In this document: positions 6,730 through 37,832 of the stretch, one piece after another | Position numbering within the stretch: the stretch's first letter is position 1 | Layout of the letters: every line of letters starts with the position of its first letter | From: an uncultured Candidatus Saccharibacteria bacterium | GTDB taxonomy: Bacteria; Patescibacteriota; UBA1384; XYA2-FULL-43-10 | DNA: 42,750 bases | Assembly (NCBI GenBank): GCA_964558315.1 | Contig: CAZLCL010000004.1 | Location: 7,221 to 49,970 of the forward strand | Reading direction: 5' to 3' | Translations under genes and position numbers: made by a program | Notes under the pieces: model-generated | Database searches by the model: none | What the model was told of the DNA's origin: nothing | Seen by the model: the letters and a program-made list of their open reading frames with translations, nothing else

Positions 6730-8877
6730 ATGCAAAATAAGTCATTTTTGAAAAAAGCTTTTTTGGCGACAAAAAGTGTTGCTCCTGGTTATTTTTTGTT
6801 GACGGAAAAAGTAGAAGAAAAATCCAACGAGTCTTTTTTGTTATTTATTATTGAATCCCACGATGACAAATTTGGTAAAAAATTTCAACAAATTACTCAT
6901 CAGCATGTTACAAAAGAATTTCTTTCTAACAATAATTACTCCCTTTTGAATTTTGAAGAGAGCCTCAACAATGTTAATAAATACTTTTTAAATAATCAGA
7001 CTGCTGAACAGCAATCTTCGCTTAACGCTTTTATCGGTTTTTATCAAGATTTTACTCTCCATATTTCGATGATCGGCTCCATTGAAGGTTATTTATTAAG
7101 AAAAGGCAAAATTAATTCGTTGACCGAAGGTTTAAGTAGTAATAATGATACGAGCTTTGTAAATATTACCAGTGGCGAATTACTGGCTTTAGATTCAATT
7201 ATTGTCGGCAATAAAAACTTTTTTGATCGGCTTTCTTTGGACAGAATTAGAAGAACAATTGATCACTTAAGTCCCAAAGAAGCTACCAGAGATTTTTTTA
7301 GGATATTGAGAAAAAATCACTTTTTAGACTGCAATTCAATCATTTTAAATGTTTCCCCTTATGGTAATGACAATAATGCATCTGATATTGACGATACAGA
7401 TGAGATTATTTATCTTGATGAAATAGAGGAGACAAAACTTTCGCATACATGGAAAACAATTAAGCCATTTTTAATCAAATTTTTATCTTATTTAGCTACT
7501 GCTATTAACCGATCCGGAAAACTATTATTGCAATTGTGGCGTAAAATTTCCCAATCTTGGGATACTAAGTATCGCCAAAAAACTAAGGAATTTATTAACG
7601 AAACCGGTAAAAATACTAAAAAAGGCCTGAATAGCGTTTCATCGAACATTAGACAAGGGATAAAACCAAAATCATCTAAGGTAAAAATTAAGTCTTATCA
7701 AGGTGCCGAAAAAAATTATTTTCTATATATCAAAAACATCATAAATTTTATTATAGTTAGTCTTATAAAACTGTTTAAAAAAGAGAATCGAAAATATCTT
7801 TACACATTTTTGCTACTTGTTTTAATACTAACTTCTTATTTAAAAATCGTTTCAAATAACAAAAATAGGGATTCAATCAAACAACAAAACGATGCAAAGT
7901 ATGCCCTAGAGCAAGCTGAGGCATCCCTTCAAAAAGCCAACGAAGACATCTCTTTGGGTAGATCAAACGGCATGGAGACTTTATCCCAAGCACTTGACTA
8001 TCTATCTCAAGCCGAAAATAATCCGGCCATTCTTGAATCAGCTCAAAAAATTAAAAAGGATATTTACTCGAAAATTGATGGTATCACAAACACAATTAGG
8101 TTATCTAATCCATCGGCAATTTTTTCTTTCAACCACGCCGTTTCAGTAACCGCAATATCCGGCTCAGTAATTTATGGTATTACCGAAGATGGCAAAATAT
8201 ATTTTACCGACGCAAGAGATAAAGACCCAAGATTAATAAGTGCAATAGATTCGACTTTTGGCAAACCTTTGTCGGCTTCTTATTCAGAGAACACCGGCCT
8301 CTTGTATATTTTAACCGATAAACCAACCATTTGGGCATTTGATCCTCTTGCACAATCAGGCGCAGAGATAGAGGTCACAGAGAGCAGTTGGGAAGCAGGC
8401 AATGCGATAACCACTTATAGCACTAATCTATATCTTTTGGATTCTGTAAATGGAAAAATCTGGCGACATAGCGAAAACGGCCAAAAATTTAATAAAGGTG
8501 TTTCCTATGCTGGTAATAGTAACGCCGCGTTGAACGGTGTTTCGTTGGCGATAGATGGTAGTATTTATGTATTGAAAGAGGATTCTACTATCGTAAAATT
8601 TTCTCATGGCACATCGGATACAAATTTCTCTCTGCAGAATCCTCCTCAACCTGATAGTAAAATTTCTAAGGCCGAATCAATTATTACTGACTCAGACTCA
8701 CAAAATATTTATATTCTTGATTCAGATCAAAATCGGATTCTGGAATTTGCCAAAGATGGTAAATTCGTCAAACAGTATCGTTTAGAAGGAAAAGATATTA
8801 GCTCCTTTCAAATTAACCCTCGAGTTCAAAAAATGTGGGTTTTTTGCCAGAATGAAGTATTCGAAATAGATTTATAA
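6730..8877 (+). CDS. Large membrane protein of unknown function: cytoplasmic N-domain, central TM region, C-terminal beta-propeller-like (NHL/YncE-like) repeats
   Basis: Hydrophobic segments lie around aa 330-375 (FLYIKNIINFIIVSLIKLF, YLYTFLLLVLILTSYLKIV). The C-terminal third has about 6 repeats of the type IY(I/L)LD...I..F (e.g. NIYILDSDQNRILEFAKDGKFVKQY). Confidence 0.5.
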   Translation: MQNKSFLKKAFLATKSVAPGYFLLTEKVEEKSNESFLLFIIESHDDKFGKKFQQITHQHVTKEFLSNNNYSLLNFEESLNNVNKYFLNNQTAEQQSSLNAFIGFYQDFTLHISMIGSIEGYLLRKGKINSLTEGLSSNNDTSFVNITSGELLALDSIIVGNKNFFDRLSLDRIRRTIDHLSPKEATRDFFRILRKNHFLDCNSIILNVSPYGNDNNASDIDDTDEIIYLDEIEETKLSHTWKTIKPFLIKFLSYLATAINRSGKLLLQLWRKISQSWDTKYRQKTKEFINETGKNTKKGLNSVSSNIRQGIKPKSSKVKIKSYQGAEKNYFLYIKNIINFIIVSLIKLFKKENRKYLYTFLLLVLILTSYLKIVSNNKNRDSIKQQNDAKYALEQAEASLQKANEDISLGRSNGMETLSQALDYLSQAENNPAILESAQKIKKDIYSKIDGITNTIRLSNPSAIFSFNHAVSVTAISGSVIYGITEDGKIYFTDARDKDPRLISAIDSTFGKPLSASYSENTGLLYILTDKPTIWAFDPLAQSGAEIEVTESSWEAGNAITTYSTNLYLLDSVNGKIWRHSENGQKFNKGVSYAGNSNAALNGVSLAIDGSIYVLKEDSTIVKFSHGTSDTNFSLQNPPQPDSKISKAESIITDSDSQNIYILDSDQNRILEFAKDGKFVKQYRLEGKDISSFQINPRVQKMWVFCQNEVFEIDL

Positions 8878-31081: not shown

Positions 31082-32455
31082 CTATAATTTTTGAGTAATT
31101 AAGCTCGCAATTTCCTGAATCTTAACCCTTTGTTGCTTCAAAGTATCCCTGTCTCTAATTGTTACAGTATTATCATTGAGACTATCGAAATCAACTGTAA
31201 CGCAAAAAGGAGTCCCAATCTCATCTTGACGACGATAGCGTTTTCCGATATTGCCGTTATCATCAAATTCACAAACAAAAGACGTTTTGAGATCGTCAAA
31301 AATTTGTTTTGCCATATTAACAAGCTCGGGCTTATTCTTTAACAGCGGGAAAATTGCCGCCTTAACTGGGGCAATCTTTGGCGGGAATTTCATCACAACT
31401 CTTTTACCATCCCCAACAGTCTCTTCGCAATATGCACTATCTAAAGCAACTAAAATACTACGATCTAATCCAAAAGTCGGCTCCAAAACATGTGGTATAT
31501 ACTTCCGATTTGTTGCCTCATCAAAATACTCGAGCTTCTCTCCGCTTTTCTCAGAATGAACCTTCAAATCAAAATCACTACGATGAGCCAATCCGAATAA
31601 CTCCTTAAAGCCAAAAGGATATTGATATTCAATATCTACTGTTTTTTTGGAATAGTGGGAAAGTTTTTCTTTGGGATGTTCATATCTTCTCAAATTTTCT
31701 TTGACCGCTCCAATCTCAATGGCAAATTCCTCTTGTAAATCTAGCCACTCCGAAAAAATCTCTTGCCAATTACTGTCGGGAGAAATATAGTATTCTATCT
31801 CCATCTGCTCAAATTCTCGAAGTCTAAAAATAAAATTTCCGGCTACAATTTCGTTTCGGAAAGCTTTGCCGATTTGAGCCACTCCAAAAGGAATCTTTTG
31901 GCGTGTGGAGTCTAAAATATTTTTAAATTCAATAAAAATAGCACCGGCAGTTTCTGGCCGTAGATATGCCACTGCCTCATCCCCAACTCCGGTAGTATTC
32001 ATGTTAGTCTTAAACATCATGTTAAAATTTCTTACCTCACTCCAATTCCGTTTGCCACAATTTGGACAATTAACCTTGTCATCAAGCATTTTTTTCATTT
32101 GCTCTAATTTACCCTCTAAGTCCTGCCCAGTAGCATCTTCGACAATATTGTCAGCCCTGAACCTGCTTTTGCACTCCTTGCAATCCACCATAGCATCATT
32201 AAAACTGGTGGTATGGCCACTAGCCTCCCATAACCTTGGGTGAAGAATAATAGGGCCGTCAATCCCAACAATATCCGATCGGTTGTTTACAAATTTTTTC
32301 CACCACAAATCTTTAATATTCTTTTTTAACTCCGAGCCGTAAGGACCGTAGTTATATGAGTTAGCAAAACCGCCATATATCTCAGATGCACTATTTACGA
32401 AGCCTCTCCTCTTGCAGAGAGATACAATTTTTTCCATCCTGTCTTGATCAGCCAT
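31082..32455 (-). CDS. glyQS: Glycine--tRNA ligase (dimeric class II, GlyQS type)
   Basis: 457 aa. It starts with an N-terminal RRGF..SSEIYGG-like segment (RRGFVNSASEIYGGFANSYNYGPYG). Class II motifs follow (FRNEI, GLDR). An anticodon-binding C-domain closes the protein. Confidence 0.9.
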   Translation of the reverse strand: MADQDRMEKIVSLCKRRGFVNSASEIYGGFANSYNYGPYGSELKKNIKDLWWKKFVNNRSDIVGIDGPIILHPRLWEASGHTTSFNDAMVDCKECKSRFRADNIVEDATGQDLEGKLEQMKKMLDDKVNCPNCGKRNWSEVRNFNMMFKTNMNTTGVGDEAVAYLRPETAGAIFIEFKNILDSTRQKIPFGVAQIGKAFRNEIVAGNFIFRLREFEQMEIEYYISPDSNWQEIFSEWLDLQEEFAIEIGAVKENLRRYEHPKEKLSHYSKKTVDIEYQYPFGFKELFGLAHRSDFDLKVHSEKSGEKLEYFDEATNRKYIPHVLEPTFGLDRSILVALDSAYCEETVGDGKRVVMKFPPKIAPVKAAIFPLLKNKPELVNMAKQIFDDLKTSFVCEFDDNGNIGKRYRRQDEIGTPFCVTVDFDSLNDNTVTIRDRDTLKQQRVKIQEIASLITQKL

Positions 32456-32523
32456 ATTTTTCCTCTTTAATATTCTAGCCAGATTTTATCCTATTTTAAG
32501 CCAAACGTAAACAATGATGCTCA

Positions 32524-32544
32524 ACCAGCTAACGCAGGTGGTTT
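32524..32544 (-). repeat. 21-nt hairpin module, copy 2 (degenerate)
   Basis: Plus strand ACCAGCTAACGCAGGTGGTTT matches 19 of 21 nt with 32741-32761. Confidence 0.7.
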
Positions 32545-32623
32545 CTGGGTTCAACGGGCTAATGCCCTCTTTTGTCATCCTGAGTGAAACGAAGGATCTG
32601 TTTACCATTAACGCGGTGATGGG

Positions 32624-32656
32624 ATTCTTAACCCGCTGATTCAGCGGGTTAAGAAT
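32624..32656 (-). other. Perfect 14-bp stem-loop in the glyQS leader region
   Basis: ATTCTTAACCCGCT (32624-32637) pairs with AGCGGGTTAAGAAT (32643-32656) across a 5-nt loop. No U-run follows on either strand. Confidence 0.8.
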
Positions 32657-32740
32657 GACAGAGTATGGTAGAGAATGTATTTTTTCTTAAGTTATTGTAT
32701 ATGCATCTGATTGCATAATGCTAATGCTTTAAACGCATAC

Positions 32741-32761
32741 ACCTGCTTACGCAGGTGGTTT
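32741..32761 (-). repeat. 21-nt hairpin module, copy 1 (7-bp stem; GUAA tetraloop when read on the minus strand)
   Basis: Plus strand ACCTGCTTACGCAGGTGGTTT. The stem is CACCTGC/GCAGGTG at 32740-32757. The loop is TTAC on plus, which is GTAA (a GNRA loop) on minus. Confidence 0.7.
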
Positions 32762-32780
32762 ACCTTGTAGGTAAGGCGTT

Positions 32781-32824: not shown

Positions 32825-32986
32825 TCAGCGCAGACGTTTTTCGACTTTTGCCATGACATGATTGTAGTTGGCAAGAGCCCTTTGGCAGTAATTCTGCCGG
32901 CGTAATTGAGCAAGAGCTTGTTGCTCAGCCCTTTGCGCTCTTGCCGTTTTGCCACTATTGCGAAACGCTACCTGATGTTGAGTCAC
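32825..32986 (-). CDS. Candidate small basic protein (53 aa, GTG start), unknown function
   Basis: Hand translation gives VTQHQVAFRNSGKTARAQRAEQQALAQLRRQNYCQRALANYNHVMAKVEKRLR. A strong SD, AAGGGAGGAAG, sits 7 nt before the GTG. Codon choice is GC-rich and unlike neighbouring genes. It is below the ORF-track cutoff and could be a chance ORF in a structured RNA. Confidence 0.35.
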   Translation of the reverse strand: MTQHQVAFRNSGKTARAQRAEQQALAQLRRQNYCQRALANYNHVMAKVEKRLR

Positions 32987-33040
32987 GATTCTTCCTCCCT
33001 TGTATTCGTTCCGGGATGACGAAAAATCACCAACCCAGAC

Positions 33041-33076
33041 AAAAACAAAAAAGCCGCCGGTAGACTTGGCGGTTTT
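33041..33076 (-). terminator. Intrinsic terminator after the island-1 micro-ORF
   Basis: Minus strand reads AAAACCGCC-AAGTCTAC-CGGCGGC followed by TTTTTTGTTTTTG. The GC stem lies at 33053-33058 / 33068-33073. Confidence 0.7.
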
Positions 33077-33098
33077 AATGTTTAACTATATTTAAAGA

Positions 33099-33197
33099 TT
33101 ACACTAAAACCACCCGTTTACCCACGACCACAACACAAACTAGAGCACCTGATTGCTTTGATAAAAAAATCGCTCTATTTTGCATTATTTGTTTCAT
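33099..33197 (-). CDS. Candidate leaderless Val-rich micro-ORF (32 aa), possible leader peptide
   Basis: MKQIMQNRAIFLSKQSGALVCVVVVGKRVVLV. The ATG begins 8 nt after the -10 hexamer, with no SD. The last codons overlap a sequence complementary to the terminator 5' arm. Confidence 0.3.
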   Translation of the reverse strand: MKQIMQNRAIFLSKQSGALVCVVVVGKRVVLV

Positions 33198-33204
33198 TTT
33201 TATC

Positions 33205-33233
33205 ATATTACCAGCCTGATTTTTCCAGGTCAA
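33205..33233 (-). promoter_or_regulatory. Sigma70-like promoter of island 1 (TTGACC-17-TAATAT)
   Basis: On the minus strand, TTGACC lies at 33233-33228 and TAATAT at 33210-33205 with a 17-nt spacer. Confidence 0.55.
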
Positions 33234-33324: not shown

Positions 33325-33364
33325 AACACAATAATTTGATACGATCGTTGCAATCTATTGTGTT
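33325..33364 (-). repeat. 40-nt hairpin repeat, copy A (overlaps the stop codon of the PaaX-like gene)
   Basis: AACACAATAATTTGATACGATCGTTGCAATCTATTGTGTT has a 9-bp stem AACACAATA/TATTGTGTT. The 22-nt loop contains the palindrome ACGATCGT. 34 of 40 nt are identical to copy B. On the minus strand it is followed by TTTTAAAAAT. Confidence 0.8.
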
Positions 33365-33879
33365 TTGAAAATTTTTTTGAGCTCATTCTCAATATCTGTT
33401 TTTTCTACAACAAAATAAGCTACAAATTTTTCAACCTCGTGCATTTTAATCACTAAAATTTCATCATCAGCTTTATTATAAGGGCAAGCCCACAAACTCT
33501 TCTGAACTTGGCGGAAACCAATCTGTTTAATTGATCGTCTAAATCGGTCTCTTCTTTTTCTGAACTCCTCGGGAATATCGAAGGACAATATCCGCCACCT
33601 ACCGTCCGAAGATTTATCTTTAGAATTCTCTAAGCATTTAATATTTCCCTTATCCGTTAGAACAATCGAGTTATTATTGATTTTAATATAACCACTTTTT
33701 TCTAAATATTTAATTCTTTCGCTAAACCTGGTTATTCTGAAACCTTTTAGCTCAATCTGTTCACATAATTTATTTGGAGTTAAAAAAGCGTGACCAACTA
33801 CAAAAGGAAAATTTACAATAACTTCCAGTATTGTTAAACTGATATCTCTAAGAATAATTTTTGTCTTTGGATTTTTCAT
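33355..33879 (-). CDS. PaaX-family-like regulator (N-terminal winged HTH + C-terminal PaaX_C / Cas2-like fold domain)
   Basis: DGRWRILSFDIPEEFRKRRDRFRRSIKQIGFRQVQKSLWACPY matches the PaaX C-terminal pattern W.G.W.lv.fdiPe..r..Rd.lrr.L...GF..l..s.W..P. The N-terminal part has an HTH-like RFSERIKYLEKSGYI. Confidence 0.7.
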   Translation of the reverse strand: MKNPKTKIILRDISLTILEVIVNFPFVVGHAFLTPNKLCEQIELKGFRITRFSERIKYLEKSGYIKINNNSIVLTDKGNIKCLENSKDKSSDGRWRILSFDIPEEFRKRRDRFRRSIKQIGFRQVQKSLWACPYNKADDEILVIKMHEVEKFVAYFVVEKTDIENELKKIFKTQ

Positions 33880-34762: not shown

Positions 34763-35512
34763 TTAGCTACGGGAAGACAAAATGCTCTCCGCCTCTTTTA
34801 GCTGTTCGGGATTATTCACGCCTAACACTTCTTCCTCGCTCGACACCTTAACCGCGATTATCTTTTTGCCTTGATCTTTGGCAATTTTTATTAGATCTGT
34901 TAGATAATATTCTTTTTGGGCATTGTTTGTGGAAAGCTTATCAAAGTTTTGCCACAACCATTCTGCATCAAAAATATAAAACCCGGGGTTTGATTCCGAA
35001 ATCTGCTTTTGTTCCTCAGTGCAATCCTTTTGTTCAACAATTTCGGAAACATAGCCATCTTCATCGCGCAAGATCCGGCCGAATGCCCAGAAATTTGGAT
35101 CGGCAAAATCAACCGATAGCATAGCAATAGTCGGTTGTTCATTTTGATACTCTTGAATCAGATTTTTGATTGTTTCAGGCTTAAACAAGGGCATGTCACC
35201 GTAACACACCACAACAGCCTCAACTTGACCTATTAGGCTCTCTCTGGCCATCATTGCAGCATGACCGGTGCCTAACTGTTCCTCTTGAACTGCATAATCA
35301 ATAGAATCAGCAAAGTATTCCCTAACTAACTCTTGTTTATAGCCGACAACAGCAACTATTCGCTCGATTCCAGAGTCTTGCACATTTTTGATAGCGTAAT
35401 AAAGCAAGGGTTTGCCATTTGCCTCAAACATCACTTTTGGTATGGGGGAAGCAGAGCCTTCGTTCATTCTTGTGCCCTTACCGGCGGCTAATATAACTGC
35501 GGCAAAATTCAT
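34763..35512 (-). CDS. GlmU-like nucleotidyltransferase domain protein (UDP-GlcNAc pyrophosphorylase half)
   Basis: AVILAAGKGTRM, PKVMF, QEEQLGTGHAA, YGDMPL, EQKDCTEEQ, NPGFY and EYYLTDL follow the N-terminal domain of GlmU motif by motif. No LbH domain is attached. Confidence 0.8.
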   Translation of the reverse strand: MNFAAVILAAGKGTRMNEGSASPIPKVMFEANGKPLLYYAIKNVQDSGIERIVAVVGYKQELVREYFADSIDYAVQEEQLGTGHAAMMARESLIGQVEAVVVCYGDMPLFKPETIKNLIQEYQNEQPTIAMLSVDFADPNFWAFGRILRDEDGYVSEIVEQKDCTEEQKQISESNPGFYIFDAEWLWQNFDKLSTNNAQKEYYLTDLIKIAKDQGKKIIAVKVSSEEEVLGVNNPEQLKEAESILSSRS

Positions 35513-35524
35513 TTTGTTCTCCTC

Positions 35525-36214
35525 TTAATCTTTCAAATGATCTATAATTTTTGAATCATCAGCTATTAATCCTCTATGACTTTTAAAGCCACCCAGCACA
35601 CACCTCTTGCCGATAAAAGTTCCGGGATTAATTAATGCTTTACATCCTGTTTGGCTACCGTCACCCAGAATACTGCCAAATTTTAGTAATCCGGTATCAT
35701 AATACTTGCCATCCGACTTAATTCCAATAGTTTTGGGGTTATCGTCAAAAAAATCGAATCTTATATTGGCAAAGATCGTGCTGGCCGCAATATTGGTGTT
35801 GTTACCAATTATCGAATCACCTACGTAATTAAAATGGGAGGTCCAGGCCTTGTTGAGCATGATGGAATTTTTTATCTCACAGGAGTTGCCGATAATACAC
35901 TCATCTCCAAGAATTACATTTTCTCTAATAAAAGCTCCAGGGCGAATTTCGCAGTTATTGCCGATAACAACATTATCTCCCACATATGCACCGGGATATA
36001 TTTTTGTGCCTTCTCCAACATAAATATGCTCCCCTTCCATAAATGCCCTAGGAAAACGACCTCCAAGGTTCTTAGATTGTTTCTCTTTAAAGAAAGTTAT
36101 TATATATTCTTCGATATTCTTAACTGTTTCCCAAAGCGGCTTCTTGGGAACAAAGACTTGTCTGAACTCAAATTTATTTAAATCAAAATATTTTTCAGCA
36201 AAAAATCTCTCCAT
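35525..36214 (-). CDS. Left-handed beta-helix (hexapeptide) acetyltransferase, GlmU C-terminal-domain-like
   Basis: Tandem hexapeptide repeats (VGDNVVIGNNCEIRPGAFIRENVILGDECIIGNSCEI) are present. HFNYVGDSIIGNNTNIAASTIFAN resembles GlmU HLSYLGDAEIG..VNIGAGTITCN. Confidence 0.75.
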   Translation of the reverse strand: MERFFAEKYFDLNKFEFRQVFVPKKPLWETVKNIEEYIITFFKEKQSKNLGGRFPRAFMEGEHIYVGEGTKIYPGAYVGDNVVIGNNCEIRPGAFIRENVILGDECIIGNSCEIKNSIMLNKAWTSHFNYVGDSIIGNNTNIAASTIFANIRFDFFDDNPKTIGIKSDGKYYDTGLLKFGSILGDGSQTGCKALINPGTFIGKRCVLGGFKSHRGLIADDSKIIDHLKD

Positions 36215-36269
36215 ATATTATCCTTAGTTAATCTAACCCCAGCCTACCACTACATTAAAGCGAAAAATA

Positions 36270-36310
36270 TGGAAAAAGAAAAGTCCGCCCGCCGGGTCGG
36301 CGGGCGGACT
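36270..36310 (-). terminator. Strong intrinsic terminator closing island 2
   Basis: A perfect 13-bp GC-rich stem AGTCCGCCCGCCG/CGGCGGGCGGACT (36282-36294 / 36298-36310) with a 3-nt loop, followed on the minus strand by TTTTCTTTTT. Confidence 0.85.
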
Positions 36311-36336
36311 GGATCTCATAATGCTACTGCGACCCC

Positions 36337-36549
36337 TTAGCACCTCCGGTGCTTCCATGCACCGGTGTTAATTTCTTGCTCCATACACTTGGGACAACCC
36401 GGTTGACTACATTGAATGCATCTTTTGAGGGTGTTCCGCGCAACCGGCGGGTCGGCTTTGGGCCTCGGTCCATGGAGCCCAGCCCCGCAATGAGGGCATT
36501 TCTTCTCCGCGTTCACGCCGTTAACTCTTGATGCAGACCTCTTTGCCAC
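36337..36549 (-). CDS. Candidate small CPxCG-type zinc-finger protein (70 aa, GTG start)
   Basis: VAKRSASRVNGVNAEKKCPHCGAGLHGPRPKADPPVARNTLKRCIQCSQPGCPKCMEQEINTGAWKHRRC, with SD AAAGGGG 6 nt before the GTG at 36549. The longer ATG-start version in the ORF track (to 36642) would run through a terminator hairpin. The sequence is very GC-rich (40/60 at 36421-36480) and could instead be structured RNA. Confidence 0.4.
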   Translation of the reverse strand: MAKRSASRVNGVNAEKKCPHCGAGLHGPRPKADPPVARNTLKRCIQCSQPGCPKCMEQEINTGAWKHRRC

Positions 36550-36600
36550 AGATATCCCCTTTCGTGCTGTATTGAAAAGCGTATGCCCTTCAAGCAGAAC

Positions 36601-36623
36601 AAAAAAACCGCCTTTTGGCGGCT
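36601..36623 (-). terminator. Intrinsic terminator after the island-2 micro-ORF
   Basis: Minus strand reads AGCCGCC-AAAA-GGCGG followed by TTTTTTT. Confidence 0.8.
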
Positions 36624-36649
36624 GATCTTTAGATGTCTGCAACGAAGAA

Positions 36650-36709
36650 TCAACCGCTGTGCGGACAGATTAGAATAACACCAATAATAAGTGATTCTGA
36701 TCGCTTCAT
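36650..36709 (-). CDS. Candidate leaderless micro-ORF (19 aa), possible leader peptide
   Basis: MKRSESLIIGVILICPHSG. The A of the ATG is the 7th nt after the TATAAT hexamer. The stop-codon region GCGGTTGA is complementary to the terminator 5' arm. Confidence 0.25.
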   Translation of the reverse strand: MKRSESLIIGVILICPHSG

Positions 36710-36715
36710 GTTAAC

Positions 36716-36744
36716 ATTATATCATATGTAGCAATAAATGTCCA
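36716..36744 (-). promoter_or_regulatory. Sigma70-like promoter of island 2 (TGGACA-17-TATAAT)
   Basis: On the minus strand, TGGACA lies at 36744-36739 and TATAAT at 36721-36716 with a 17-nt spacer. Confidence 0.55.
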
Positions 36745-36941
36745 TATTTACCAGCAGTTTTCTCCAGATTTGATCTTTCTTCTCAAACACCGGTTATTTA
36801 CCCCGCCTAAAAACCGTTTTTCTTGCACTGGCACAACAAAATCTCCCCATTCCCAACAATCAACGCCTCAGTCAGAATTTTAAATTCTATTGCTACTTTT
36901 TCCATAATTCTTTATTCGTTATTCTTAATTTTATATTTGGC

Positions 36942-37832
36942 TTACTTCTGGCATTTTGGACACCAGTGTGTGCCACGACCTCCGATTACGGTGCGCTCGA
37001 TAGCTCCTCCGCAATTATTGGGGCACTTCTGCCCAGTTTTACGGTAAACTAATAGATGCTCGTGAGCTTCGCCCTGCTTGCCAAAAGCATCTACAAAATT
37101 TTCACTAGATGAACCACCAAAATCAATTGCCCGATTCAACACCTTTTGGGCGGCCGAAATTAATTTGCTCCACTCTTGCTTAGTTAACTTAGACACCAAG
37201 CGCATCGGTTTTATACCCGCCTCAAAAAGCGACTCATCGGCATAGATATTCCCCACTCCGGCAATTATGGCTTGATCCATTATGAACTGTTTAATCTTGC
37301 GATTAGGGAATCTCTTGGCCATCTCAGCTAAATACTCAGGAGTGAGCTCTCCCTCTAAAGGCTCTACTCCAATATTATTAAATAGGGCCCCATAATTATG
37401 ATCTTTGATCTTTGATTTTTGAATTATCTTTATCCAGCCGAATCTTCTAATATCGTTAAAATATAGCACGCTTTCGTCATCAAAATAAAATATGGCCCTT
37501 GTATGTTTATTGGGCAACTTCTCAAGCCATGCACCATCCGGATGGCCTCCACCCTTGCGATTGCGCAAACAAAAATCATTTTCGCCTGGGCATTCTTCCC
37601 ATATTAGCTGTCCCGTCATCTTTAGATGGAATAATATTAGATTATCATCATCCAACTCAAAAAAGATATTCTTGGCTCTGCGGCTAATATTATCAATTTG
37701 TTTGCCAATAACTTCTTTTTTGTGTATTTGCACAACCTTGTTGTCGCGATCATCAAAATTCGTGATTCTTTTGCCAATTATCACTTTTTTTAAACCCCTA
37801 ACGATTGTTTCCACTTCCGGTAGCTCAGGCAT
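36942..37832 (-). CDS. mutM: Formamidopyrimidine-DNA glycosylase
   Basis: N-terminal MPELPEVE (catalytic Pro2/Glu3), an H2TH region, and a C-terminal zinc finger [25 protein letters not shown]. Confidence 0.9.
   Translation of the reverse strand: [296 protein letters not shown]

Follow-up and report, generated by a model that had tools for sequence, protein, structure and literature searches.

In their classical form, ribosome-dependent attenuators belong to amino-acid operons (trp, his, leu, thr and ilv), and a further group, the translation-stress or antibiotic attenuators that work through a leader open reading frame (ORF), is exemplified by vmlR, bmrCD and the erm and cat leaders. Here, we consider a putative device of this general type in a 42,750-nt stretch (the window) of contig CAZLCL010000004.1 from an uncultured Candidatus Saccharibacteria bacterium (assembly GCA_964558315.1, positions 7,221 to 49,970). 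The element, island 2, occupies the 727 nt between mutM and a gene for an LbH acetyltransferase and appears to combine a regulatory leader with a gene for a cysteine-rich protein of 70 residues. A second island lies about 3 kb away and is referred to as island 1.

Two described systems are particularly relevant. Upstream of ilvBNC in Corynebacterium glutamicum, initiation of the IlvL leader peptide has been discussed in terms of a leaderless mRNA and is followed by alternative hairpins and a terminator (PMC11857589), so that the combination of a leaderless upstream ORF with transcription attenuation is already established. The mycobacterial 'Cys ribulon' comprises polycysteine leaderless short ORFs, at which ribosome pausing remodels the downstream mRNA structure (bioRxiv 10.1101/834739).

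The genomes of Patescibacteria, or the candidate phyla radiation (CPR), are small and are considered to be poor in regulatory devices, and their short intergenic 'islands' usually go unannotated. An earlier note on this DNA had drawn attention to the two islands as ORF-poor regions of high GC content, sharing an order of parts that suggested an undescribed regulatory or selfish cassette. Every part that it listed for island 2 (promoter, 19-codon ORF, terminator, Shine–Dalgarno sequence with a GTG-started ORF and a 13-bp terminator) is present where it had been placed. The explanation that we favour, and regard as reasonably probable, sees island 2 as a transcription unit that is complete in itself and has been inherited vertically within a CPR-like lineage, with the Cys-rich gene governed by a leader-ORF attenuator and switched on when translation falters.

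The leader of island 2 and its alternative folds

The gap between mutM (36942-37832, minus strand) and the LbH gene (35525-36214, minus strand) extends from 36215 to 36941 and was left uncalled by the gene caller of the source assemblies. All parts of the unit are read on the minus strand. It opens with a sigma-70-type promoter, TGGACA-17-TATAAT with an extended -10 TG (36716..36744), which matches at 11 of 12 positions and came top of the promoter scan. Related loci are denoted here by L numbers and proteins by P numbers. Both hexamers and the 17-nt spacing are kept in L007, and equivalent promoters are found 6–9 nt before the micro-ORF ATG in L019, L021, L023, L026 and L028.

The leader ORF, MKRSESLIIGVILICPHSG, has 19 codons and a stop codon (36650..36709). 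It is predicted to be leaderless since its ATG begins 7 nt after the -10 hexamer; in most genomes the distance is 6–9 nt. The frame is open over 19–23 codons in nine of nine genome variants, where the chance of it being open is 0.23–0.41 per sequence. Comparisons of the leader ORF gave nonsynonymous to synonymous changes of 9:1, 11:0 and 8:5, with no third-position bias. The peptide sequence therefore appears to be unconserved while the frame itself is maintained, which suggests that it is the act of translation, and not the peptide, that has been conserved. In all eight aligned leaders the stop codon falls in, or no more than 13 nt past, the invariant GGCGG of the antiterminator 5' strand described below. 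The leaders are generally rich in Ile, Leu and Val, and no conserved run of codons was found among them. Attenuation by branched-chain or cysteine 'hunger codons', an idea prompted by this richness and by a run of Val in island 1, was rejected because a conserved codon pattern is absent.

Leaders from eight genomes were aligned from the micro-ORF ATG to the start codon of the main ORF. The consensus calculated by RNAalifold is an antiterminator rather than the terminator: GGCGGUUgauu, which includes the micro-ORF stop, pairs with the 5' arm of the terminator and the bases preceding it. In the window the 5' strand of this helix (helix 1) is GCGGUUGAUU at 36648..36657, which holds the leader stop codon and carries compensatory changes, and the 3' strand, at 36618..36627, overlaps the 5' arm of terminator 1. 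The latter is an intrinsic terminator, AGCCGCC-AAAA-GGCGGUU followed by U7 (36599..36623, about -10.6 kcal/mol). A second consensus hairpin, helix 2 (36560..36603), runs from UUUG in the U-tract through UUGAAGGGC and GCUUUUCAA to CGAAA, immediately ahead of the Shine–Dalgarno (SD) sequence GAAAGGGG (36556..36563). The SD lies 6 nt before the GTG of the main ORF and is found at the same register in all loci of the family.

The alignment supports these pairings. Over the whole consensus 90.2% of cells are paired, compared with 38–50% when the partners are slid by one to three columns, and double-sided changes occur in 14 pairs. On four of five measures, the covariation score among them, none of 500 shuffles reached the observed value; on the remaining measure, further pair types, 91 of 500 did so. 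Helix 1 has double-sided changes in four of its 11 pairs, with 88.6% of cells paired, and helix 2 in ten of its 20 pairs, with 91% paired. The covarying pairs of helix 1 sit in the extension outside the terminator hairpin and so support the antiterminator specifically. The 5-nt cores GGCGG, CCGCC and GGCGG are invariant in all eight leaders, as would be expected where one strand must pair with two partners. A terminator, with a GC stem of 6–7 bp and a tract of U6–U8, separates the leader ORF from the gene in all nine full-length leaders, the hairpins amounting to -10 to -11.6 kcal/mol where computed. In seven of nine genomes the antiterminator is the minimum-energy fold of the nascent RNA, before the 3' arm of the terminator exists.

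The leader thus has three structural features of an attenuator of this kind, namely a maintained short ORF at the 5' end, an intermediate terminator and an antiterminator within reach of a ribosome at the leader end. The order of parts, to which the earlier note had attached significance, is functional and not accidental, and the regulatory nature that it suggested is likewise supported, with no Rfam or protein family covering the island. At the gathering threshold the only Rfam matches in the window are tRNAs, and ARAGORN likewise found nothing beyond tRNAs elsewhere. A permissive Rfam search of island 2 gave as its best match rnk_leader, at 27.1 bits against a threshold of 50 and driven by the terminator hairpin, and island 1 has no match at either the gathering or a permissive threshold. 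A known structured RNA was therefore discarded as an explanation of the islands, no Rfam family having reached threshold.

We infer from sequence the transcription start, the ribosome as the deciding agent, the sign of regulation, the inducing signal and the binding of zinc discussed below. In the mechanism that we propose, the strong promoter would start a leaderless mRNA at the AUG of the 19-codon ORF. The last codons of this ORF, its stop codon and the next eight or so nucleotides would form the 5' strand of an antiterminator of about 10–11 bp, the 3' strand of which is the 5' arm of the terminator. A ribosome arriving in time would cover the stop-codon region while the terminator is being synthesized, blocking the antiterminator, and transcription would end after about 110 nt (OFF). 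Were leader translation absent, late or stalled upstream, the antiterminator would form first and polymerase would read through (ON), whereupon helix 2 would fold and the 70-residue protein would be made from its SD-led gene. The signal may be translation stress or the supply of aminoacyl-tRNA. Concretely, and in a form open to testing, the proposal is that the terminator would be controlled by a 19-codon ORF through its start and stop codons.

The same switch might instead be set by a ligand, as in a riboswitch, by a protein, for example through autoregulation by the Cys-rich product, or by a tRNA, with the micro-ORF being incidental. Two conserved helices with covariation fit such a device, the leader peptide is unconstrained in sequence, helix 2 adjoins the SD, and the product, being small and basic (+10), is predicted to be a plausible nucleic-acid binder. 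We nevertheless consider this unlikely. Neither conserved sequence nor conserved structure is present 5' of the antiterminator to provide an aptamer or binding site; this region stays an open frame of constant length in all nine variants, with its ATG beside the -10 box, and the stop codon is always inside the antiterminator strand or just after it. Rfam families again give no match, and the same type of leader stands before three ORFs that are unrelated (the Cys-rich ORF, an alternative in L007 and the 53-residue ORF of island 1, the last two being described below), which argues against product-specific autoregulation.

Alternatively, the island could hold two independent genes: one for a hydrophobic 19-residue micro-protein, either a membrane peptide or a peptide resembling a type I toxin, and the other for a zinc protein expressed by leaky read-through or from an unrecognized promoter. 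Small hydrophobic peptides are common toxins, and here a canonical terminator comes after a micro-ORF that is itself hydrophobic. The ratios of substitutions given above show, however, that the micro-peptide is not under purifying selection, 19 residues is short for a membrane helix, and the covarying pairing of the 3' end of the ORF with the terminator arm would be left unexplained. From terminator 1 to the SD the promoter scan gave no same-strand candidate. No antisense RNA features of a type I toxin–antitoxin pair were seen, and the promoter scan, the extent to which antisense transcription was analysed, has no plus-strand candidate at 36221-36879. We judge this two-gene arrangement to be decidedly improbable and retain the attenuator as the preferred interpretation.

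The unit closes with terminator 2 (36272..36310), a 13-bp stem with 11 GC pairs (36310..36282) followed by a T-rich tract. The earlier note had put this terminator about 55 nt before the next gene; it is there, and the spacing to the LbH ATG is 68 nt, or 58 nt counted from the end of the T-tract. Its outer 7 bp (AGUCCGC/GCGGACU) are shared with L007 and L012, and L018 and L028 have equivalent strong hairpins. Terminator 2 would insulate the unit from the downstream LbH/NTP-transferase operon, which has a promoter of its own. The region following the unit, CCATATTTTTCGCTTTAATGTAGTGG at 36240..36281 (minus strand), is kept in L007, L018, L026 and L028 and also precedes LbH in L013, where there is no island; for this reason we assign it to the LbH gene as its conserved upstream (promoter) region, outside the regulatory unit.

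A new family of small cysteine-rich proteins

The ORF that follows the SD (36337..36549, GTG start) encodes a basic Cys-rich protein of 70 residues with a net charge of +10. Its exact sequence was not in the protein collection searched, and a word-indexed protein search gave no match. An exhaustive phmmer search of 1.84 billion representatives identified four small proteins, P0121 (E = 7e-14), P0123, P0125 and P0126; a profile search added P0128 and P0129 and a scan of metagenomes a further five loci. Relatives of the ORF occur in at least nine other metagenomic genomes and share the motif CPxCxAxL..P..K..RN..K.C..C...GC..CM....W.H..C. In the family alignment 19 residues are invariant, including seven cysteines and one histidine (C18, C21, C44, C47, C52, C55, H67 and C70); the initiator Met, which was typed into the query row, is counted apart from these. 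Differences between L019 and L021 number 12, 13 and 41 at the first, second and third codon positions, with 32 codons differing only synonymously and 20 nonsynonymously, and this third-position bias indicates clear purifying selection on the protein. As judged by these comparisons the ORF is a real, conserved coding gene, so that the description of the island as ORF-poor no longer applies. A leader precedes every Cys-rich ORF of the family, including that of L028, which was not in the training set of the covariance model introduced below and scores 95 bits, and that of L031, which is truncated at the 5' end.

The phmmer search also matched P0122, a protein of 642 residues with eight tandem repeats of about 60 residues, each containing ARVCPHCGAH; it was the CPHCGA motif of the query that matched. 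P0122 is probably a translated DNA repeat from an organism of high GC content and unrelated to the Cys-rich family.

No significant match to the 70-residue product was found in Pfam, NCBIfam, PDB sequences, PHROGs or PADLOC, and a defence system was discounted given the PADLOC result. Seven cysteines and a histidine would suffice for two zinc sites, and the protein probably binds zinc. Two-zinc cross-brace domains (FYVE, PHD and RING) are comparable, since the present family likewise has its eight conserved ligands, seven Cys plus one His, within about 55 residues. An AlphaFold model has a mean predicted local distance difference test score (pLDDT) of 70.8, and the top Foldseek hits were FYVE/PHD/RING cross-braces with TM scores of 0.42–0.49 and a best E of 0.15, none of them significant. 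There is no sequence-family match, and with a model of moderate confidence and non-significant Foldseek hits a structure-based assignment of function was abandoned.

The composition of the island follows largely from this protein. The value of 67% GC quoted in the earlier note for 36421-36480 is correct (40 of 60 nt); the GC-rich part is confined to 36282-36623 (56%), whereas 36624-36941, at 35%, is close to the 34.7% of the window, and the term high-GC island holds for the former segment and not for the latter. In every genome the Cys-rich gene has 49–63% GC compared with 39–49% for its locus. Under housekeeping codon usage its amino acids alone lead to an expected GC fraction of 0.513 (51%) against an observed 0.56, while GC at third codon positions (GC3) is 0.58 compared with 0.33–0.41. 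The excess is therefore mostly an effect of composition, arising from a protein rich in Cys, Gly, Pro, Arg and Ala together with GC-rich terminator stems. Host-derived (actinobacterial) DNA was rejected as the source of the high GC of the window ORF, the family being clade-specific and syntenic and the GC mostly compositional.

The Cys-rich ORF is accompanied in most genomes by a tiny acidic ORF, which lies after it, overlaps it or is fused to it. This acidic ORF encodes a product with the motif DPxxEPPxxYWxGDPPP and a charge of -4 to -6. It is located at about 8246-8386 in L021, at 8276-8401 in L023 and at about 572-652 in L028, and is fused in P0121 (L018) and in L031. The window retains what appear to be the first few codons only (ATGAGATCC at about 36319), ahead of the terminator. 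The acidic product may be a partner or neutralizing peptide of the Cys-rich protein.

Distribution of the unit and the leader of island 1

Where enough flanking sequence is available (L019, L021 and L023) the unit occupies one slot, in the order PadR ... mutM, zero to two variable genes, the unit, NTP_transferase ... recO ... glyS and mraZ. In L026 and L028 mutM is directly upstream, and the short contigs L018, L027 and L031 show the NTP-transferase side only. In the comparison of sister genomes, which the earlier note had proposed, the unit is missing from some and the ORF has been exchanged in others. L017 has a mutM to LbH gap of 80 nt and no unit; the unit is also absent from L013, which is rearranged, and from L006, the gap of which has different contents and no leader. 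The unit can therefore be dispensed with. The promoter, leader ORF, terminator, helix 2 and SD of L007 and L012 are about 80% identical overall to those of the window (BLAST), and near-identical from terminator 1 to the SD, but in these two genomes everything from just after the SD to the inner stem of terminator 2 is replaced by an unrelated ORF of 115 codons (MPECFVCQKP...; L007 7715-8062 and L012 5577-5924) with a GC fraction of 0.60 and GC3 of 0.69. That this cargo is a frameshifted or inverted relative of the Cys-rich family was discounted, tblastn having given no match.

In L006, a sister metagenome-assembled genome that carries the label Candidatus Saccharibacteria, the same gap contains a NUDIX remnant and, on the opposite strand, a Cys-containing ORF of 106 codons (7087-7407, minus strand) that ends at a terminator. 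Lacking a leader of the island 2 type, it is a third state of the locus. The window has its own remnant of a NUDIX/MutT gene, the first 32 or so codons at 36807..36905 (minus strand), outside the regulatory unit; 16 of 24 residues are identical to the N-terminus of the L007 NUDIX protein (BLASTP, E = 2e-9). The NUDIX gene is intact in L007 and L012, and the L012 copy at the same position is assigned to PF00293.

Patchy presence, the replacement of the ORF alone by an unrelated GC3-rich ORF between identical flanks in L007 and L012, and the somewhat raised GC3 of the Cys-rich gene (0.58 compared with 0.33–0.41) would all fit a mobile or selfish cassette or a recently transferred island of high GC. 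Against this, the unit is found in the same syntenic slot in every genome with visible flanks, each leader type occurs once in the window, and neither the ten neighbouring products scanned nor the precomputed Pfam annotation of the flanks includes an integrase, resolvase or transposase domain. No direct repeat is common to both islands, the ends of island 2 itself not having been searched for repeats. The Cys-rich family is confined to the clade and its GC excess is mostly due to amino-acid composition. Both cargos gave no match in 50,697 phage records (blastn) or in PHROGs, the plasmid collection not being searched, and a phage origin of the cargo was set aside on these results. An exact 22-mer of the conserved flank had no matches in viral and metagenome contigs, in collections that lack the source contig. 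With two copies in 42.7 kb, no shared sequence beyond the leader architecture and a fixed slot, the selfish cassette envisaged in the earlier note finds little favour, and we regard mobility or recent transfer as very improbable. To a chimeric assembly at the GC boundaries, which the earlier note had named as a potential refutation and which a sharp change of GC within a metagenomic contig might have indicated, we attach practically no credence, because four assemblies, independent of one another and drawn from different samples (two from JGI and two Logan runs), agree over the 727 nt with 100% identity and orthologous units occur in many other samples.

The attenuator that we favour for island 2 has a counterpart in island 1, and it was there that the earlier note had seen the same order of parts. 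The paralogous leader (32989..33233, minus strand) comprises a promoter, ORF, antiterminator, terminator, second helix and SD. The promoter, TTGACC-17-TAATAT (33233..33205, minus strand), precedes a 32-codon leader ORF, predicted to be leaderless (33197..33099, minus strand), and GGGUGGUUUUAGUGUAA pairs with ACAUUAAAACCGCC to form the antiterminator, followed by the terminator, a helix from the U-tract to the SD, and the SD itself. Island 1 folds into the same antiterminator and terminator alternatives as island 2, and its parts are kept at 81–84% in L007 and L012. R1, a covariance model trained solely on leaders of the island 2 type, matches the island 1 leader in register at 32989-33114 with 25.6 bits (E of about 0.003 over 214 kb and 7.5e-6 locally). 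Scores for the island 1 leaders of the window, L007 and L012 are 25–27 bits (E of about 0.001–0.004 over 214 kb) and are the best same-strand scores outside the training family. The recurrence is thus borne out by an in-register match and a common fold, and island 1, as far as such comparisons can tell, is the same device as island 2. Neither island has a further copy in the window, BLAST of island 2 having covered the related loci as well, and they have no BLAST-detectable sequence in common.

The gene behind the island 1 leader (32825..32986, minus strand, GTG start) encodes a basic protein of 53 residues (+9) and is called as a gene in the JGI and Logan assemblies. Compared with L007 the differences at the three codon positions are 3/9/18, the pattern of a sequence evolving as coding, while the island 1 micro-ORF, with 10/9/10, does not evolve in this way. 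The 53-residue product is unrelated to the Cys-rich family, as the earlier note had said of the products of the two islands.

Several points weigh against the interpretation that we have placed on these leaders. The R1 score of island 1 (25.6 bits) is on a par with reverse-strand self-hits, and the E-values are rough. The invariant 5-bp core of helix 1 yields no covariation, so that its support comes from about four extension pairs in eight sequences of one clade, and the nascent RNAs of L026 and L028 have something other than the antiterminator as their minimum-energy fold. An open leader frame is only moderately improbable (about 0.3 per lineage over some five independent lineages). The designation leaderless derives from promoter spacing alone, and L027 may have a short SD-bearing 5' untranslated region instead. 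There is no obvious set of regulatory codons, and richness in Ile, Leu and Val is to be expected anyway of an AT-rich genome. Finally, the protein model is mediocre and lacks a significant fold match.

A bolder proposal, which we consider unlikely, is that both islands represent a lineage-specific platform for sensing translation stress, in which a leaderless sensor ORF and antiterminator would serve exchangeable, promoterless cargo. It is based on one leader type fronting three unrelated small, basic, GC-rich ORFs and on the exchange between identical flanks in L007 and L012. If it were true, the GC-rich codons of the cargo, which are rare in the genome, could stay translatable when the tRNAs for the AT-rich proteome and sensor ORF are depleted, which would give organisms regarded as having hardly any regulation a built-in response to starvation or conflict.

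Other features of the region were noted. After the hairpin of the 53-codon ORF, island 1 has a hairpin-rich insert of about 260 nt (32515-32775, minus strand) that L007 and L012 lack. Direct repeats that are almost identical, AACCACCTGCGTAAGCAGGTG and AACCACCTGCGTTAGCTGGTTG, flank the insert, a 12-bp palindrome, CTTAACCCGCTGAATCAGCGGGTTAAG, lies within it, and Rfam gave no match; the insert may represent either an RNA gene or a small insertion element. JGI contig L001 is 99.82% identical to the window over 11.8 kb, with all 21 differences in glyS and this insert (31103-32623) and none upstream of 32623. This suggests that 31103-32623 is a block that varies between strains or has recombined, one of its edges being inside island 1. 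Downstream of island 2 the LbH gene precedes the NTP-transferase gene (34763-36214, minus strand), the reverse of the domain order in GlmU, and in L019, L021, L023 and L026 the NTP-transferase gene has no adjacent LbH gene; the label split glmU is doubtful for these reasons.

Between recO and glyS, sister genomes conserve an ORF of 272–294 codons with 61% GC and GC3 of 0.76 (L007 10483-11337, L012 8345-9199, L016 3425-4279, L021 10843-11727 and L006 9946-10764, all on the minus strand), for which Pfam, NCBIfam and PADLOC gave no match. At this position the window has a PaaX/Cas2-like gene (33355-33879). The ORF is a stable, very GC3-rich gene in AT-rich genomes. An actinobacterial origin of high GC, discounted for the Cys-rich gene, remains a candidate that may apply to the L007 cargo and to this gene, of 284 residues in one form.

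Comparison with known attenuators

A short intergenic island in a CPR genome can therefore hide an uncalled conserved gene of a new Cys-rich family and at the same time hold what is probably a covariation-supported attenuator, present twice in one region. A covariance model and a protein profile are now available for scanning all CPR genomes. The small basic proteins concerned, probably induced under faltering translation, are candidate stress, ribosome-associated or host-interaction factors in these episymbionts. The mechanism is of a textbook type, and the advance is incremental unless the proposal of exchangeable cargo holds.

Like the classical attenuators, island 2 has a short upstream ORF, an intrinsic terminator and an antiterminator that takes up the 5' arm of this terminator, so that the two exclude each other, and its leader stop is placed such that a terminating ribosome would mask the antiterminator strand. 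Unlike them, it has no run of regulatory codons linked to a pathway, a gene for a small basic protein stands in the place of a biosynthetic operon, and its mRNA is predicted to be leaderless. The two also differ in the state without any translation, in which the island 2 RNA is predicted to read through, the 2:3 helix being dominant, whereas trp terminates.

The ilvBNC system differs from island 2 in belonging to a different phylum, in having Ile, Leu and Val regulatory codons with a metabolic rationale, in following a three-hairpin model with an anti-antiterminator and in having no sequence relationship to it (PMC11857589). With the Cys ribulon island 2 would share leaderless sensory upstream ORFs and the use of one design at several loci; the ribulon, however, has translation as its target, a ribosome-binding site being unmasked, and relies on poly-Cys tracts to sense cysteine (bioRxiv 10.1101/834739), whereas in island 2 the predicted target is an intrinsic terminator and the leader has at most one Cys.

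In the sign of its regulation island 2 would resemble the translation-stress and antibiotic attenuators more closely than trp, since delayed leader ribosomes are expected to favour the antiterminator and induce the gene, as they do for vmlR, bmrCD and the erm and cat leaders. Those leaders control resistance genes (for ABC-F proteins, efflux pumps and methylases); island 2 shows no evidence of an arrest peptide or drug dependence. The word undescribed, as used in the earlier note, is apt for this leader and for the protein family, but not for the kind of mechanism, given that attenuation through leaderless upstream ORFs is known (PMC11857589; bioRxiv 10.1101/834739). Island 2 most likely couples a familiar type of device, attenuation by a leader peptide whose upstream ORF is leaderless, to a new family of small proteins.

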